64,000 bases of DNA from Escherichia phage vB_ESM-pEJ01, in sequence record OP114734.1, one strand, 5' to 3'. How positions within the stretch are numbered: position 1 is the stretch's first letter; every line of letters starts with the position of its first letter. Under the pieces are notes generated by a model. That model was not told the origin of the DNA. It searched no databases and saw only the letters and a program-made list of their open reading frames with translations. Below are positions 4,781 through 38,358 of this stretch, piece after piece. Both the position numbers and the translations under genes were made by a program.

Positions 4781-6889
4781 TTAAAATTTAACATTCTTAA
4801 CCAGTTTCATAAAGTCTTGTGCGCGTTTGTCATTATGCAGAATACGATACCAGTTATCGACAATATCATACAGTAACGGGCTATTCTCTTTAAACTTCGC
4901 ACAAACTGCTTTAATTCGTTCGTTTGCTACCGTGAATTTTTCATCACAAATCTTTTTAGTTTCTTCGTCCATAACCCAACGAGTACGAAGGAGTAACTTG
5001 GAAACCTCTTTATTATAATGACGACCGTACAGTCTGTCAATAAATTCTGGAACACAGCGTTCTAGTTCATCGTCATGAAACAACATAGTGATCACACCCA
5101 GATATTCGCCATACCCCAGATGATTGGTCTTAACCTTCTTAGCCAGACCAGCCAGCTTACCGCGAACAAATTCTAGCGCACATTCCAATTGTTCGTCAAC
5201 GAGATATTTTTGTGTCTCGTTTCGAGTAATAATATACTTTGTTACCCCGAAGTAGTCAAGCGCCGTGTGTAATGTATTTTCACTATGGATCGATTTACGA
5301 CTACGGCTTTCGAATGCATCACCTACGCGGAACATGTGCAAGCCTGATAACTCGCGAATCTCTGCCGCTTTCATGTGATGGCTGGTTTTATGCCAACTGT
5401 CACCAATCTTTTCCATGATATACACGTTAGGCAGCTTGGGAGTAGCTTCACGTTGTGTACGCTCGGTCTTCTCCGGTTTAACTGCTTTAGCACGCAGATC
5501 ATCGGCCTCAGACACTTTAATCACGGTCATTTCAGAATCATCATAATACTGTTTGATGTACTCGAAAGTCTCCATATGTTTTTCGTTGCGCTGACGGAAC
5601 ACAAGTACCTTTTTATTGATGCCGTATTCCTGGACCATACCGTTAAGAGTCAGTGCACGCAGTTTCGGTTTATCGGTATCATCAATAAGACACGTAATAT
5701 CTTCTTTATGCATCCATACAAAATGCGTAATGTTGTATTGACTGCTAACGAAAGCAGGGCGCAATTTACTGATTGTGTGACGAGTACGATACAGAGTATA
5801 CACCTGACCTTCTACGTCATTAGGCGAATCTTTACCCGCATTCACAAACTTATTATAGATTGCTACCGGATCATCCCACTGCCCGATCTTACCCATCTTG
5901 CTAATAATATTGCGTTGAGTCGATGAATACTCGCTCATAAATTGCGCAAGTTTACGCTCTGTTTTAATGTTGGCGATCTTCTCTTTAACCTTTTCCAACA
6001 TCATTTCATTGATTTCTGCAATGCGTTTTTCGATGTTCGCTTTAGTCTCAATTGACAAGTGAACTTCTTCACGCGATGGCATCAGGTCCAGATCACCCAA
6101 CTCAAAATTAATGTAAATGGTCTGGTGCTGGCGGTTTACAGCTTCTAACCATGTTCCGCGAACATATTCATACGGGATCGGGTACTGGATCTTACCCATG
6201 ATTGCATATACCACATAGGAATCGTTATCACGCCCATTACAAACATAATAATTATCAAAGCTAGGGAAATAATTAATTTCGATTGCATTGATATTAGGTT
6301 TGTGTTCCCCAAAATGACGCAGTACAAACTGTGCTTCTCGATGCCATGTCTGAATATCTTTCTCTTTCACCGGAATAGTGATTTTCAGACCATTGTCTTC
6401 ATAGGTCGGTTCGTCGAAAATCTGCACCATTTTAGGCATAGAGTTTTGCACAAATGCCGTAAAGCCATAAGCGCGACCATTGTAATAGTTTACGATTGTA
6501 AAGGTGTCAGTGTAGCTATAAGCAGATTTCGCACCTAAACCAAAAGATCCGATATAATCATTAGTCTGGTCTTTGGTTGATTCAAAGTAAACCGTAAACA
6601 GTTGTTCTAATTCTTTCTTAGACGGAATACCAGTACCATAATCACGCACAGAAAAATACGGTTCGATTGCAGTCGGTAAATGAATATCAAACGGACGATC
6701 TAAGGTTCCTGCTTCTTTGTGAGTGTCGGTAGCATTACATGAATACTCACGGACGCAAGCACGCTCACAATATTGATAAGTGTTCTTAGAAAGCACCATA
6801 AAAGCCTTGCTACTTGCTTTCAGAGAAAAATCAACCGCACCGCTCAAGTCACTGCCAAATACTTCCTCATTATCGATATGCATTTTCAT
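4781..6889 (-). CDS. rIIA: rIIA protein (GHKL/Bergerat-fold ATPase N-terminus)
   Basis: 702 aa; GHKL-type motifs (DYGTGIP, GSFGLGAKSAYSYTDTFT); synteny with rIIB and topoisomerase 39. Confidence 0.85.
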   Translation of the reverse strand: MKMHIDNEEVFGSDLSGAVDFSLKASSKAFMVLSKNTYQYCERACVREYSCNATDTHKEAGTLDRPFDIHLPTAIEPYFSVRDYGTGIPSKKELEQLFTVYFESTKDQTNDYIGSFGLGAKSAYSYTDTFTIVNYYNGRAYGFTAFVQNSMPKMVQIFDEPTYEDNGLKITIPVKEKDIQTWHREAQFVLRHFGEHKPNINAIEINYFPSFDNYYVCNGRDNDSYVVYAIMGKIQYPIPYEYVRGTWLEAVNRQHQTIYINFELGDLDLMPSREEVHLSIETKANIEKRIAEINEMMLEKVKEKIANIKTERKLAQFMSEYSSTQRNIISKMGKIGQWDDPVAIYNKFVNAGKDSPNDVEGQVYTLYRTRHTISKLRPAFVSSQYNITHFVWMHKEDITCLIDDTDKPKLRALTLNGMVQEYGINKKVLVFRQRNEKHMETFEYIKQYYDDSEMTVIKVSEADDLRAKAVKPEKTERTQREATPKLPNVYIMEKIGDSWHKTSHHMKAAEIRELSGLHMFRVGDAFESRSRKSIHSENTLHTALDYFGVTKYIITRNETQKYLVDEQLECALEFVRGKLAGLAKKVKTNHLGYGEYLGVITMLFHDDELERCVPEFIDRLYGRHYNKEVSKLLLRTRWVMDEETKKICDEKFTVANERIKAVCAKFKENSPLLYDIVDNWYRILHNDKRAQDFMKLVKNVKF

Positions 6890-33842: not shown

Positions 33843-35312
33843 CTATTCCCCATTGCCATTATACTTTCTTTGCTTAGTTATCCACACTCTAACCATCTCT
33901 ACTGATTCACCGTCAGACGGATCAAGAGTTTTTCCTTTTTTCTTCATGCGGTACTTAAATCCGTTAAATCTTGCATTCTCTTGCTCGTTAAAGTCGAACA
34001 TCTTTTTAAATGATTTTCGCCCTTTACGCTCACCACATTCTAGCGGAATCATTCGGTCTGTTATTACATTGGCATTAGGTAGAAACGTTTTTAGATAATC
34101 CACCAACGCCCAATCAGGAACATATAGATTAACATTCTCCTTGCTCTCGTTGTCTCTCAGGTTACAACGCAAACATAATTGAAATGCTGGTTCCAGATAA
34201 TCAGACACATGACGCGCTTTCAAAAACTCATTTGTCGGGAGATCACAACTATTAGCAAGACCTTTTAAAATATCAATCTCCCATCGTTGAGGGTTAAAGC
34301 TGAACATCACAGCAACATTTTTATGATGAATGTAAGAGTTAAGACCATAAGATCCGTAAGGTATCCGCTCACCAATACCATTTGTACACGCTTCACGGTC
34401 CCGATTCACGGTATAAATGAAGTCATCACCACATTCATTTTTAACCATATCAACAAGACGTTCAAAGGTATTGTTTGTTTCTGACTGGTGACGCGACCAT
34501 CGTTCGGAGTCCGTCATGAGGATGATATTAACTCTATCTGTATTTTTATACTCTTTGAAATATAGTCGGGATTCTAGCGCACTCGGAACAAAATCGCAAT
34601 TTTCATAGTATCGTAGATACTTCCCGCTATATGTATCAAAGAGATTTGCACATGCTATCGTAACCTTTTTAAAGTCTCCCCACGTACCGTGTTTGTTATC
34701 GTTCAAGAAAACAATTTTCGACCCGTTCTTCCGGTGTCCTTCGTTATGTTTTACCATAACGTTGATTTTCTTCTCTAATAACGCCTCATAAAGCCCTCTA
34801 AGAGAAGAATCGATCATATCAGTACCATCCTTTGCACTTTCTATCTTTTCTTTGATAGCGGCCTTCTCAGAGTCTTTTAGAACTAAGTTCTGTAGGCATT
34901 CCGATTCGTCGGCGATTGGTTCGCAATGCTTCGTGATAAGTTCAAGATTAGACTTAAACGGATACTCATTAAATTCAACCAGTTGAGGAACTTCATCAAT
35001 GTAAAGAGCATATTCACCAAACATTTTTGAACGTTCCATATTAGATAACGCTGTATGTGTAATGAATATCACATCAGCACCATCTTTAACTGATTGCATT
35101 ATCGACGCTTGCACTGTCTTAAGGCTTCTTAGTCTTGTGCTATCAATCAAGACAGCACGACCGCCCATTCTTTTAAACTTATTGTAAGATTGTTCACTTA
35201 AAACACGAGATGGCGAAGCAATAACCGCTTTTTCTTTTGTCTCTAGGACGTGGGAAAGTATAGCATCAGTTTTCCCCGCCGCTGGCAATGCGATTAATGT
35301 TTCAATCTTCAT
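33843..35312 (-). CDS. P-loop NTPase, helicase-like (function unknown)
   Basis: 489 aa; Walker A ALPAAGKTDA at N-terminus, DEVPQ (DExx) ~100 aa later; no further helicase motifs recognised. Confidence 0.45.
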   Translation of the reverse strand: MKIETLIALPAAGKTDAILSHVLETKEKAVIASPSRVLSEQSYNKFKRMGGRAVLIDSTRLRSLKTVQASIMQSVKDGADVIFITHTALSNMERSKMFGEYALYIDEVPQLVEFNEYPFKSNLELITKHCEPIADESECLQNLVLKDSEKAAIKEKIESAKDGTDMIDSSLRGLYEALLEKKINVMVKHNEGHRKNGSKIVFLNDNKHGTWGDFKKVTIACANLFDTYSGKYLRYYENCDFVPSALESRLYFKEYKNTDRVNIILMTDSERWSRHQSETNNTFERLVDMVKNECGDDFIYTVNRDREACTNGIGERIPYGSYGLNSYIHHKNVAVMFSFNPQRWEIDILKGLANSCDLPTNEFLKARHVSDYLEPAFQLCLRCNLRDNESKENVNLYVPDWALVDYLKTFLPNANVITDRMIPLECGERKGRKSFKKMFDFNEQENARFNGFKYRMKKKGKTLDPSDGESVEMVRVWITKQRKYNGNGE

Positions 35313-35617
35313 TAGAAACCCTTACGTCGTGCTTTCTGGCATTTCTTGATCATTTTATCAGAAATTTCGCGCTTAGGTGCAATCTCTTTCACACCGAAAG
35401 CACTAATGCCAAATTCAGAGAGAATATATTCAACTAACAATTCACGCACACGCGCTTTACCGATATTCACGCCGTTATTTTTCAGATATGTCTGACCTTC
35501 GACTTGCATCAGATCTAAATCTGCGTCGGTAATATTGATTTCTTCCATGCGCCCAAATCGAGAATAAACCATGTGTGCGATTGCATTGTGTACTAACATA
35601 ATATATTCCTCACTCAA
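35312..35617 (-). CDS. hypothetical protein (101 aa)
   Basis: ORF. Confidence 0.4.
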   Translation of the reverse strand: MSEEYIMLVHNAIAHMVYSRFGRMEEINITDADLDLMQVEGQTYLKNNGVNIGKARVRELLVEYILSEFGISAFGVKEIAPKREISDKMIKKCQKARRKGF

Positions 35618-35620
35618 GAA

Positions 35621-35779
35621 TTACTTAATGATACTTACTTTACCAGATCCGTGACAATGAGCGCAACACCCATCACCACGCAATCCTGTTCCGTTACAGT
35701 GTTTACACTTCTTCAACGGTAAAGCCATTATAGCAAATAAAGCAATAATGAATACCGAAACTAAATTCTCAATAATCAT
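35621..35779 (-). CDS. small membrane-anchored DnaJ-type zinc-finger protein (52 aa), not in ORF track
   Basis: MIIENLVSVFIIALFAIMAL TM helix then CKHCNGTG...CAHCHGSG (two CxxCxGxG repeats); GAGGG RBS. Confidence 0.4.
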   Translation of the reverse strand: MIIENLVSVFIIALFAIMALPLKKCKHCNGTGLRGDGCCAHCHGSGKVSIIK

Positions 35780-36038
35780 AAATCGCCCTCAGTTCTTTAT
35801 AGCCTCCAATGTGCTCGTTGTCAATGAATATCTGGGGGTATACAAACCGGAGGCTCTTTGAGTTTAGCCTCCCCGCCAGTTCTTCAATCATATCACGGTC
35901 GGGAATAATGTCAACCCCGACCTGCTTGAATACTGGTTTAAGTGTATACGGAATACCCAGATCATCCAGTAGCTTCATTGCACTAATACAACCATAACAA
36001 TGATAAGCCTCTTTCGGTATACCGTATATCTCGATCAT
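35769..36038 (-). CDS. glutaredoxin-like protein (NrdH-type)
   Basis: CYGC redox motif near N-terminus, thioredoxin-fold length (89 aa), in nrd cluster. Confidence 0.65.
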   Translation of the reverse strand: MIEIYGIPKEAYHCYGCISAMKLLDDLGIPYTLKPVFKQVGVDIIPDRDMIEELAGRLNSKSLRFVYPQIFIDNEHIGGYKELRAIYDY

Positions 36039-36535
36039 TTCTCAGCCTTTAATCTTTCTAGTTCTTCTTCCAGTTCCTTGATCCGTTGGTCGCGTTCAAA
36101 GTCACGCTGTAACTTAGTGGCGAATACTCGTTTAAACTGATTGTAATCATCGATTTTAAACACTTCTTCTTCGCCATAGCGACGCACAGAAACTTCGTAG
36201 TTATTGAAGAATTGTTGCATCATTGCTTCGGATGATAGTTCTGCTGATACTACTTTAAAATATTGATCTTCTGTAGGCGAAAACCAATTACAAGCATAAA
36301 GATAAACCTTTTCATTGTCTGGACACTGGTAAGCCTTACCATCGATTTCAATCACAGAAACATATTCAGGTATACTAGATGAATCAATAGCTAAGACTTT
36401 AAACGCACGGTCCCCGATAAACTCGGAGATCACACGATTCGCATCACTGGTTGCAAATGCTTTACGCGCTTGTTCGTTTTTCCACTGATAGGTCATACCA
36501 ACAACAAACATATTACCATCCTCGCTCTTTACCAA
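36035..36535 (-). CDS. paralogous-family protein, array 1 member D
   Basis: Shares FKV..ID..G.V..IEIDG.Y module and coiled-coil tail with neighbours. Confidence 0.5.
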   Translation of the reverse strand: MVKSEDGNMFVVGMTYQWKNEQARKAFATSDANRVISEFIGDRAFKVLAIDSSSIPEYVSVIEIDGKAYQCPDNEKVYLYACNWFSPTEDQYFKVVSAELSSEAMMQQFFNNYEVSVRRYGEEEVFKIDDYNQFKRVFATKLQRDFERDQRIKELEEELERLKAEK

Positions 36536-37337
36536 TCAAAAATTCAACTTCACGACGTTTAATGTCTTCTTGAAGGTCTTTAATCTTCTGGCGATCTTGC
36601 ATGATTTCATCCATCTTGTCAAGTGCCGCAATGAAATCATCGAAACGTTCAAAGGTTTTACCTTCATTTGCTTCGCCAAATTTAACCATTGTCAGGCCGT
36701 AACGACTACTAAACAGACGTTTCAACTGTCCAACGATTTTAGAATCAGTGGTTATAACTTCCAATTCTTCTACTTCACGAAAGAATTTTCTATCAGAATC
36801 AATAAACCAGCTAGTTCCTTTATGGTCTCTATCTTCGGTTGCGCTCATTAGAGTATGGTCTTTACCATCAATTTCAATTACATCAATTTGCCCACATGGA
36901 CTAACATTTTTAACAGTAAAAGGTCTATAATTTATTGCTCGTGCAATAACATAATTAAGGTTAGATACGTTTTCAGCATAATGGCAGAAGTCGGTCATAG
37001 CATTCGCATCTTTCCAAGTATAAGTTTTACCAACTTCCCATTTCTGGGGAACTTCTTCAACTTCACGAAAGAATTTTCTATCGAATGGACTAAAGAAATA
37101 TGTTGCCGTCCAAATGTCTTTTCCTGTAGCAGTTTTCGCCGTATGATAAACACCGTCTAGCTCTATTGCATAAATCCAACCGTTACCATCGATCTCGATG
37201 ATGGTAAATGGCTTGTCACCAATAGCTGCACTAATATCGCTGTTAAGTGGAGAAAGAACACCTTCTCCGTTAGTAATAAACTCAGTTTTAGCGTTTTCGT
37301 CTTTCCAGGTGTAAGTTTTACCAATTTCCCATTTCAT
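36513..37337 (-). CDS. paralogous-family protein, array 1 member C (internal domain duplication)
   Basis: Contains KWE(I/V)GKTYTWKD...DRKFFREVEE twice. Confidence 0.5.
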   Translation of the reverse strand: MKWEIGKTYTWKDENAKTEFITNGEGVLSPLNSDISAAIGDKPFTIIEIDGNGWIYAIELDGVYHTAKTATGKDIWTATYFFSPFDRKFFREVEEVPQKWEVGKTYTWKDANAMTDFCHYAENVSNLNYVIARAINYRPFTVKNVSPCGQIDVIEIDGKDHTLMSATEDRDHKGTSWFIDSDRKFFREVEELEVITTDSKIVGQLKRLFSSRYGLTMVKFGEANEGKTFERFDDFIAALDKMDEIMQDRQKIKDLQEDIKRREVEFLIGKERGW

Positions 37338-37349
37338 AATATATTCCCC

Positions 37350-37832
37350 TTAACCGATTTTATCAAGTTCGTTTAATGCTTTCTCTGCTTCCTGTATAGC
37401 TTGCACCCTTTCCGGCATTTTGTCAAGAAAATCTTTCAACTCTTCAAAACTGGAGATATGACGCAAGGCGTTAGCACCGATAGCCGCATGTGATTTGCAT
37501 TCAAAGCGGATTTTATAATTATCCATCGCCAACTTGAGAAGATCAATTAATTTAGATTCTTCTGGAATAATAATAATTTCTTCAAATCTGCTACGGTCAT
37601 GATCCAGAAACCAACAAGATAGACCTACATCGGTTGAACTCATATAAGTTCCATCATGAAGATAAACAGATCGCACGTATCCTTTTTTCGCATCAACCGA
37701 CGCAACTTTAAACGGTAATCGCAGATATTTCAAATAATCAACATCATACCATTTAAAAAATTGGTTTGCATCTTTTACATCTTTCCACGCATAGGTCTTA
37801 CCAACTTCCCATTTCATAATATCATCTCTCAT
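37350..37832 (-). CDS. paralogous-family protein, array 1 member B
   Basis: MKWEVGKTYAWKD N-terminus; start probably at 37817. Confidence 0.5.
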   Translation of the reverse strand: MRDDIMKWEVGKTYAWKDVKDANQFFKWYDVDYLKYLRLPFKVASVDAKKGYVRSVYLHDGTYMSSTDVGLSCWFLDHDRSRFEEIIIIPEESKLIDLLKLAMDNYKIRFECKSHAAIGANALRHISSFEELKDFLDKMPERVQAIQEAEKALNELDKIG

Positions 37833-38358
37833 TTTTGATACGTGATTCTAATTGGATCATACGGTCGCGCGTTTGTTTGTATTCTCGGATAGCACCGATC
37901 CGGCTAGGCATACCATCCAGTACGCTCTTAATACCTTCTAGGGTAGTAATTTTGGCAATGCTATTATGTAACCCCATCTTATCGATCAACTGAATGTCGT
38001 AGGCTTCCATAAGCAGACCCAGACGTTCTAAAGTTAGGTCTTCTTCTTTTTCTTTCGATTCTGGAATCTTAGGTTCAATAGTAACTTCGGTAAAGAAACG
38101 ACGCTCACCAGCCCAAAACCACACACCATAACAATTGATAGAAGATTCTTTTAACGTCATCGGCTCGGTATCTTCACCGATAATGGTAATTTCACTAACA
38201 TCACCATCAGCATCAAGTGCTTCTACCTTAAACGAACGACCGTTCAACAGGTCAATAATCATACTGTTAATGGATGACGAAAATTTAGTCAGTTCAGCTT
38301 TTGATATTTCACACTTAATGTTGTAGATCTTACCTACTTCCCATTCCATAATAATCAC
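37822..38358 (-). CDS. paralogous-family protein, array 1 member A
   Basis: MEWEVGKIY..., ERRFFTEV motif, coiled-coil tail. Confidence 0.5.
   Translation of the reverse strand: MIIMEWEVGKIYNIKCEISKAELTKFSSSINSMIIDLLNGRSFKVEALDADGDVSEITIIGEDTEPMTLKESSINCYGVWFWAGERRFFTEVTIEPKIPESKEKEEDLTLERLGLLMEAYDIQLIDKMGLHNSIAKITTLEGIKSVLDGMPSRIGAIREYKQTRDRMIQLESRIKNER

Follow-up and report, generated by a model that had tools for sequence, protein, structure and literature searches.

A 52-residue phage protein with a predicted membrane anchor and a DnaJ/anti-TRAP-type zinc knuckle is conserved between Krischvirus and Ounavirinae

Results

The locus and its start signals

The window analyzed here, a 64-kb stretch of the genome of Escherichia phage vB_ESM-pEJ01 (OP114734.1; 64,000 nucleotides), carries on its minus strand a very short gene, which we call the mini-protein gene, between nrdH and a homolog of T4 gene 55.2 (Table 1). 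Along the coding strand, the order of genes in Krischvirus is nrdG, four paralogous ORFs, nrdH, the mini-protein gene, the gp55.2 homolog, a gene for a 489-aa DEAD-like protein, and gene 55. The mini-protein gene begins with an ATG at 35779-35777, which is the only possible start because a stop codon lies three codons upstream, and it ends with a TAA at 35623-35621. Translation of this minus-strand ORF gives the 52-residue product MIIENLVSVFIIALFAIMALPLKKCKHCNGTGLRGDGCCAHCHGSGKVSIIK.

Table 1. Features of the mini-protein locus, with positions counted from the first nucleotide of the window.
Feature	Position	Strand	Basis or remark
Mini-protein CDS	35621..35779	minus	52 aa plus stop codon; RB49p046 ortholog
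First CxxCxGxG motif, CKHCNGTG, residues 25-32	35684..35707	minus	Pattern scan
Second CxxCxGxG motif, CAHCHGSG, residues 39-46	35642..35665	minus	Pattern scan; 6 residues past first motif
Predicted single transmembrane helix, codons 5-22	35714..35767	minus	Hydropathy and AlphaFold2
Shine-Dalgarno GAGGG	35786..35790	minus	6 nt 5' of the mini-protein ATG; within the 3' end of the nrdH CDS
Candidate sigma-70-type promoter	35887..35914	minus	TTGACA-16-TATGAT, TG extended -10; 11/12 match; inside nrdH
nrdH (glutaredoxin, CYGC active site), upstream neighbor	35769..36038	minus	Pfam Glutaredoxin; 41% identity to T4 NrdH
gp55.2 homolog (DUF7570), downstream neighbor	35312..35599	minus	Pfam DUF7570, E=1.4e-28; 42% identity to T4 gp55.2

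The start of the mini-protein gene overlaps nrdH, whose TGA lies at 35769-35771, by 11 nt. The same overlap is present in RB49, in a divergent metagenomic relative (L009), in a metagenomic Krischvirus contig (L017), and in L018; no such overlap with the upstream gene exists in L010. The GAGGG ribosome binding site, the start codon and the overlap are identical between RB49 and L009. We considered a programmed frameshift that would fuse NrdH to the mini-protein, and found no slippery heptamer when inspecting the overlap by eye. The candidate promoter inside nrdH could drive the mini-protein gene independently of nrdH, and it is kept in RB49 and L009, though such conservation is weak evidence because nrdH is itself highly conserved. 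A single T4 late-promoter core, TATAAATA, occurs in the 64-kb window, against about 6 expected, and the position of the gene in an early-type region with only this one late-promoter motif suggests that it is expressed early.

A conserved gene that is already annotated

The window comes from a Krischvirus, a member of the RB49-like group of T4-type coliphages. When a 5.5-kb segment surrounding the ORF was compared with phage records, it matched 58 of them at 90-99% identity, every one Krischvirus, and all 58 contain a full-length tblastn match to the mini-protein. The gene had been described as untracked in the earlier note, but among the Krischvirus records inspected it is annotated as RB49p046 / NP_891617.1, a ‘hypothetical protein’, in RB49 and as W115_25, a ‘putative membrane protein’, in W115, and the protein has the UniProt entry Q7Y3T0. 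A comparative paper from 2006 placed RB49ORF046c among its novel ORFs, with only a weak match to an ‘N-terminal methylation motif’ (PMC1524935). Searches of the literature for the locus tags and for phage transmembrane zinc-finger proteins returned only the table of that paper and a genome table in which the Felix O1 homolog is a ‘hypothetical membrane protein’. Among the sources examined, the DnaJ-type motif is noted only in some Erwinia-phage records, where homologs are labeled ‘dnaJ: chaperone protein’.

Comparison with the L009 ortholog finds 12 synonymous and 9 non-synonymous differences, for a dN/dS of 0.16, a ratio indicating that the gene is under purifying selection. These differences, along with a 3-codon indel, cluster in the transmembrane segment, and the cysteine-rich tail that follows it, the knuckle, has a single replacement. 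The mini-protein gene is a real gene, conserved and already annotated.

At the equivalent positions in T4 we found no homolog: the translated products of 55.3, 55.4, 55.6, 55.8 and rIIA.1 bear no relation to the mini-protein.

A membrane helix followed by two CxxCxGxG motifs

The two motifs of the mini-protein are the sole stop-free CxxCxGxG matches in a six-frame scan of the 64-kb window. When the window was shuffled 200 times, single CxxCxGxG motifs arose at a mean of 0.26 per window, and none of the shuffles gave the motif pair. Ahead of the motifs, residues 6-22 have a mean Kyte-Doolittle hydropathy of 2.8, and the AlphaFold2 model, built from a 17-sequence alignment (pLDDT 74), places a helix at residues 2-19 and short hairpins after it. 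In this model, the protein is a transmembrane helix plus a knuckle and nothing more. What the earlier note had read from the sequence, a 52-aa ORF with a GAGGG ribosome binding site encoding one transmembrane helix and the repeats CKHCNGTG and CAHCHGSG, is borne out by these results, which add the strand that it had not given.

Across homologs, the distance from the end of the helix to the first Cys is 2-10 residues. Two other assignments were tried and rejected. A lipoprotein or Sec signal peptide does not fit, as the protein has neither a basic n-region nor a lipobox before Cys25. A rubredoxin-type knuckle does not fit either, as the motifs are CxxCxG rather than CxxCG and the profile matches are to DnaJ and anti-TRAP. 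A fifth Cys beside the second motif is common among the homologs of the 17-member alignment.

The residues flanking the helix bear on its orientation. In all 17 homologs, the segment N-terminal of the hydrophobic stretch contains no Lys or Arg, and in many it contains one acidic residue. The 12 residues past the stretch are mostly basic among these homologs, with KKCKH in the window protein. Because the N-terminal flank lacks Lys and Arg and the C-terminal flank is basic, the positive-inside rule predicts an N-out/C-in topology for the mini-protein, which would place the knuckle on the cytoplasmic face of the membrane, where zinc binding is feasible since thiols are reduced there. A few homologs (P0018, P0022) show a weak or inverted signal, and with acidic C-terminal flanks present in two homologs the rule does not hold throughout the family.

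Conservation and distribution of the family

By tblastn, the mini-protein matched 349 phage records; in 282 of these, the match covers 80% or more of the protein. Beyond Krischvirus, full-length homologs occur throughout the Ounavirinae at 30-47% identity. They include Felixounavirus proteins (wV8 gp138 and Felix O1 p243), Kolesnikvirus proteins from Erwinia phages, and a Mooglevirus protein from Shigella phage Sf14, and there are homologs in the Pectobacterium phages Wc4 and Arno162 and in Yersinia phage P778. Across the 17-member alignment (26-87% identity), exactly eight columns are invariant: C25, C28, G30, G32, C39, C42, G44 and G46. Loss of the Cys pattern in homologous loci would have counted against the original reading; instead, the Cys/Gly pattern holds in all 17 homologs down to 26% identity.

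The family corresponds to phrog_3931, whose function is not assigned in PHROG and which gives a near full-length HMM match (E=4.3e-10, residues 7-48 to profile positions 15-56 of 59). An exhaustive profile search of 1.8 billion representative proteins returned 348 matches at E<1e-3. Among the best 150 of these 348, about 13 are proteins of 49-60 aa with the same architecture of a transmembrane helix and two motifs. Most of the others are longer and contain several copies of CxxCxGxG, and many of these have two matches to the profile where the zinc-finger domain lies in DnaJ.

We also scanned with a ‘GCC’ signature, a 69-nt degenerate pattern that covers both motifs including the Gly-Cys-Cys leading into the second. 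It had no match in 185,579 bacterial and archaeal species, each represented by one genome, and its 14 matches in metagenome contigs all lie in a Krischvirus-type or Felixounavirus-type context. By this signature, the ‘GCC’ subtype of the family appears to be confined to virulent phages. A match in a 188-kb viral contig (L013) was rejected as a family member, being a genuine DnaJ of 355 aa.

Relationship to DnaJ and anti-TRAP

The repeats had been taken as the signature of the DnaJ zinc-finger domain, and at the level of profiles this part stands. The family profile matches the cysteine-rich domain of E. coli DnaJ (1EXK) at E=4.2e-11, with both halves of that domain matched, and it also matches 2CTT (E=2.6e-6) and 6JZB (E=3e-6), from human DNAJA3 and another DnaJ. 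Bona fide DnaJ proteins dominate the distant matches of the profile among 1.8e9 sequences. The whole domain, however, is not there: the mini-protein has half of it, with one predicted zinc site, and as a single sequence it scores 14.6 bits (E=0.041) against Pfam PF00684 (DnaJ_CXXCXGXG), below the gathering threshold of 32.7 bits. A sub-threshold score is unsurprising for a protein with two repeats where the domain has four, and 15 of the 17 family members match PF00684 at E<=0.1, the best at 5.8e-5. DnaJ itself is a J-domain co-chaperone with four repeats, two zinc centers and substrate-binding domains, whereas the mini-protein, with only two repeats in 52 aa, can hold at most one Zn(Cys)4 site. 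A Pfam search found no J-domain match in it, and it lacks the HPD, the G/F region and the C-terminal substrate-binding domains. Lacking a J domain and half of the zinc-finger domain, the mini-protein is not a DnaJ; what it has in common with the DnaJ cysteine-rich domain is the motif and sequence similarity at profile level.

The closest resemblance in size and spacing is to anti-TRAP (RtpA) of Bacillus (2BX9, 3LCZ/3LD0; PF15777). Anti-TRAP has 53 aa to the mini-protein's 52, and each protein has exactly two CxxCxGxG motifs, 6 residues apart. The family profile matches anti-TRAP of B. licheniformis and B. subtilis at 8.6e-6 (3LCZ) and 5e-4, and the alignment (3LCZ residues 9-33) is ungapped over both motifs, with the 6-residue spacer in both proteins. 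When the AlphaFold2 model was compared with the PDB by Foldseek, anti-TRAP 3LD0 ranked first (probability 1.0, with 26 residues aligned at an rmsd of 0.7 A), at an E-value of 0.09 that is not significant for so tiny a domain. DnaJA2, BSD2 and 1EXK followed, likewise with E-values that are not significant. The NCBIfam model for RtpA, NF058604, gives 12.8 bits against a cut-off of 65 bits, and 12 of the 17 family members match it weakly (best E=2.1e-6). Anti-TRAP is a soluble protein with a C-terminal helix that forms trimers and dodecamers, whereas the mini-protein has an N-terminal transmembrane helix and no predicted C-terminal one. We conclude that the C-terminal 28 residues make up a knuckle of the DnaJ/anti-TRAP type, predicted from its motifs to bind one zinc.

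Remaining matches in Pfam and PHROG, including Gad1, lambda Q and Lar, are to single motifs, fall below threshold, and were set aside as noise.

Two genomic contexts

In every Ounavirinae genus examined, the order of genes is Adps, Namat, 0-2 hypothetical ORFs, the mini-protein gene, rIIA and rIIB. Adps is annotated in these genomes as ‘ribose-phosphate pyrophosphokinase’ and Namat as ‘nicotinamide phosphoribosyltransferase’; experimental work has shown the Adps-Namat pair of the Felixounavirus Bas63 to be the NARP1 anti-defense operon (doi 10.1101/2024.02.11.579819). The position directly 5' of rIIA-rIIB and 1-3 genes past NARP1 recurs in 11 metagenomic contigs.

The window is arranged otherwise. 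Its rIIA lies at 4781-6889, some 29 kb from the mini-protein gene, and no homolog of the mini-protein gene is found upstream of rIIA there. The Krischvirus and Ounavirinae contexts have no neighbor in common, and the only property common to both is an early-type region with accessory genes for nucleotide metabolism and host interaction. The order of genes in the Ounavirinae may simply be inherited and need not mean a functional link between neighbors.

Allele exchange and loss

In the Krischvirus contig L017, the mini-protein is 50% identical to that of the window, while the flanking products are far closer: nrdH 94%, the gp55.2 homolog 99%, the DEAD-like protein 100% and gp55 99% identical. 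The dS of the mini-protein gene is 0.92, against 0.05-0.47 for the flanking genes. High dS between near-identical flanks implies that a divergent allele was swapped in by recombination and not merely that the gene drifted fast. The L017 allele keeps all 8 motif residues and the architecture of transmembrane helix and knuckle. Among Felixounavirus, a +1 frameshift past the first motif destroys the knuckle in phiWec177 and in two metagenomic clusters, from which it follows that the gene is dispensable in at least some backgrounds. Such allele exchange and loss are typical of accessory host-interaction genes.

Discussion

The motif and its fold class, the annotation of the gene and the grouping of the family in PHROGs are already known. 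This work adds the recognition of the mini-protein as a minimal, transmembrane-anchored, anti-TRAP-like knuckle with one predicted zinc, as judged from sequence comparison. It also adds the conservation of the protein between Krischvirus and Ounavirinae, its absence from the cellular genomes searched with the ‘GCC’ signature, and its allele exchange and occasional loss. The immediate importance is modest, as this is an annotated hypothetical protein with a recognizable motif. The family is nonetheless common to Krischvirus and Felixounavirus, unrelated groups of virulent enterobacterial myoviruses with wide use in phage therapy and biocontrol, and identification of the mini-protein's target might point to a host vulnerability or a counter-defense not recognized before.

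Three known proteins frame what the mini-protein may do. Anti-TRAP is a 53-residue protein whose CxxCxGxG motifs bind zinc; the zinc is needed for assembly and function, and the protein inhibits TRAP by binding it (PMC2896485). The second, Arabidopsis FIP (At5g02160), is the only characterized protein we found with the same overall architecture as the mini-protein: it lacks a J domain, and after a hydrophobic anchor its C-terminal domain carries two CxxCxGxG repeats. This zinc-finger domain faces the stroma, the counterpart of the cytoplasm, and FIP has the membrane protease FtsH5 as a binding partner (PMC5915565). FIP is a eukaryotic protein, larger, with a transit peptide, and is found in land plants only (PMC5915565), so its likeness to the mini-protein is one of motif and architecture. 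The third is T4 gp55.2, an inhibitor of host topoisomerase I, TopA (PMC4396842). Gp55.2 is a small early ORFan host modulator, and the mini-protein, whose gene occupies the slot directly upstream of the gp55.2 homolog, resembles it in being small, phage-specific and non-essential-looking, though gp55.2 is soluble and has no sequence or structural similarity to the mini-protein.

We propose, with confidence that stops a little short of even, that the mini-protein is a membrane-tethered, zinc-stabilized protein-binding module that acts stoichiometrically on a membrane-proximal partner. In such a mechanism, an N-terminus of 4-6 residues would face the periplasm and one transmembrane helix would cross the inner membrane, to be followed after 2-10 residues by a cytoplasmic knuckle of about 25 residues. 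The two CxxCxGxG motifs would between them form one Zn(Cys)4 site, in the manner of anti-TRAP and of one zinc center of DnaJ. The protein would then bind, sequester or modulate a membrane-proximal host protein (a phage protein being less likely), and this binding would serve host takeover or counter-defense. Stoichiometric action is the most likely mode because the protein has neither a J domain nor a catalytic module. We read it as a binder because anti-TRAP, the solved protein closest to it, inhibits purely by binding another protein, and because FIP binds FtsH5. Zinc binding is predicted from the motif, and the binding mode of action and the kind of target are likewise predictions. Anti-TRAP's own partner, TRAP, is a Bacillus regulator that is not known to have an E. 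coli counterpart. If the mechanism holds, some 50 residues would be a minimal means of placing a zinc-knuckle binder of proteins on the inner side of the host's membrane.

A bolder form of this proposal, which we consider improbable, is that the family would be the first phage examples of a class of anti-TRAP-like, membrane-tethered ‘zinc-knuckle inhibitors’. The knuckle would dock on a machine of the host inner membrane, at its juxtamembrane part in the cytoplasm; FtsH and an abortive-infection membrane effector are examples. Specificity for the target would lie in the surface between the invariant Cys and Gly residues and around them. If true, this would explain why otherwise near-identical Krischviruses carry alleles that are 50% divergent, and why the Ounavirinae keep the gene between NARP1 and rIIAB.

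The identity of the partner is where the more specific alternatives differ. The homology of the knuckle to the DnaJ cysteine-rich domain suggests interference with host proteostasis at the membrane, as the earlier note had supposed, either by a DnaJ zinc-finger mimic that would perturb DnaK/DnaJ or by a binder or modulator of FtsH. The binding of FtsH5 by Arabidopsis FIP (PMC5915565) is consistent with the latter, and a knuckle held so close to the membrane would suit a membrane-embedded target such as FtsH. However, the mini-protein lacks a J domain and contains just half of the DnaJ domain, and homologs of FIP are reported in land plants only (PMC5915565), and we consider this reading unlikely.

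Genomic position points in another direction. Throughout the Ounavirinae genera examined, and again in 11 metagenomic contigs, the gene adjoins rIIA-rIIB near NARP1; it is exchanged among otherwise near-identical Krischvirus genomes, lost by frameshift in some phages, and restricted to phages by the ‘GCC’ signature (none in 185,579 cellular species). These are typical traits of accessory arms-race genes, and the gene could encode a counter-defense or anti-exclusion factor. Its product would neutralize a membrane-associated abortive-infection or exclusion effector, possibly alongside RIIA and RIIB. Yet the Krischvirus gene is about 29 kb from rIIA, which no homolog precedes there, searches with PADLOC and against anti-defense families gave nothing beyond noise, and the high dS of the divergent allele is a mark of recombination rather than a demonstration of positive selection. 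We would not expect this explanation to prove correct.

The 11-nt overlap with nrdH, found in the window, RB49, L009, L017 and L018, suggests translational coupling, and with it a role for the mini-protein as a thiol-redox partner of NrdH: a Cys-rich, membrane-tethered module that would act as a disulfide-isomerase or redox switch in concert with NrdH and the gene cluster for anaerobic ribonucleotide reductase. Disulfide-isomerase activity is reported for the DnaJ zinc finger and for the plant DnaJ-like zinc-finger proteins LQY1 and CYO1. There is also a weak Pfam match to the GRXCR1/2 C-terminal domain (PF23733), an animal family that combines glutaredoxin with a DnaJ-type finger, but this match spans 12 aligned residues and, at 17.6 bits and E=0.0036, lies below the 26-bit threshold. 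The Ounavirinae homologs have no adjacent glutaredoxin, the upstream gene in L010 does not overlap, and T4 has NrdH but not the mini-protein gene. Taken with the evidence on both sides, a redox partnership seems quite doubtful.

A further alternative is the opposite topology. A signal-anchor could hold a disulfide-bonded Cys tail in the periplasm, for superinfection exclusion or control of lysis. Small phage membrane proteins do frequently act at the envelope, the Ounavirinae neighbors are annotated ‘rII lysis inhibitor’, and a fifth Cys is common beside the second motif. Against this, the flanks in all 17 homologs have no basic residue before the helix and are mostly basic after it, the protein has neither a lipobox nor the n-region of a signal peptide, and the invariant Gly residues of CxxCxGxG fit a zinc knuckle, which needs the reduced thiols of the cytoplasm. 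We regard a periplasmic knuckle as very improbable.

That the ORF is a fortuitous, non-functional one in the nrdH-55.2 intergenic slot, as its very short coding sequence and the frameshifted alleles of some Felixounavirus might suggest, is barely credible given a motif pair seen in 0 of 200 shuffles, a dN/dS of 0.16, a conserved ribosome binding site, and an architecture and eight invariant motif residues kept between unrelated phage lineages at 26-45% identity.

Knuckles of this kind extend beyond the family described here. The BFVD contains dozens of uncharacterized phage proteins of 46-130 aa with DnaJ/anti-TRAP-like knuckles, and one characterized member of the mini-protein family would be an entry point to them.

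Genomic surroundings of the mini-protein gene

The stretch preceding the mini-protein gene on the minus strand holds an array of four neighboring paralogous ORFs (see table), all of which share an N-terminal W-E/K-V/I-GKTY-x-WKD motif, with the 274-aa member carrying two copies of this module. Their PHROG matches to 'goF mRNA metabolism modulator' are weak. The paralogues are 64-95% identical in amino acid sequence to their counterparts in L017, a related Krischvirus-type metagenomic locus, and the array is mosaic among close relatives. The DEAD/DEAH-like gene downstream looks like a further case of cassette-like exchange within the region, since its product has only 70% identity in a second such locus, L009, versus 100% in L017, and its neighboring genes retain 97-99% identity.

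A strong sigma-70-like promoter match lies within the coding sequence of the glutaredoxin gene nrdH, preceding the start of the mini-protein gene by ~100 nt, and is also kept in RB49 and L009. The T4 late-promoter core TATAAATA occurs once in the 64-kb window, against 5.9 copies expected from shuffles, a scarcity that is consistent with a region of mostly early genes.

In several Ounavirinae genera, the mini-protein gene is preceded by a hypothetical ORF. In Felixounavirus and Mooglevirus this ORF is ~111 aa long and overlaps the start of the mini-protein gene by 19 nt. The Kolesnikvirus gene follows a 113-aa ORF, with 10 nt between the two. The ~111-aa ORF is missing ahead of the gene in Yersinia phage P778 and Pectobacterium phage Wc4.

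Features near the mini-protein gene and in compared loci
Feature	Location	Strand	Description
DEAD/DEAH-like protein, 489 aa	33843-35312	minus	phrog_2467; annotated 'putative helicase' in phage W115
Sigma-70-like promoter match	35887-35914	minus	TTGACA-16-TATGAT, TG extended -10
Four paralogous ORFs	36035-38358	minus	166, 274, 160 and 178 aa
Hypothetical ORF, ~111 aa	L005 3669-4004		Upstream of mini-protein gene; equivalents in L003, L015, L004 (all Ounavirinae)
Full-length DnaJ, 355 aa	L013 3608-4675		J domain and four CxxCxGxG repeats; 188-kb viral contig

Variant alleles and other phage CxxCxGxG proteins

Three Felixounavirus homologue clusters (P0007, P0009 and P0010; e.g., phage phiWec177) comprise mini-protein alleles with a +1 frameshift that retain the TM helix and lose the second CxxCxGxG motif. 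Because they are found in three separate protein clusters, these alleles are probably genuine and not a product of sequencing noise.

The L013 protein was rejected as a relative of the mini-protein, as it is a complete DnaJ. Comparable small CxxCxGxG proteins may be present in other T4-like phages, given that a table of novel ORFs (PMC1524935) gives weak 'DnaJ central domain' matches for ORF179c and ORF191c of phage RB43.
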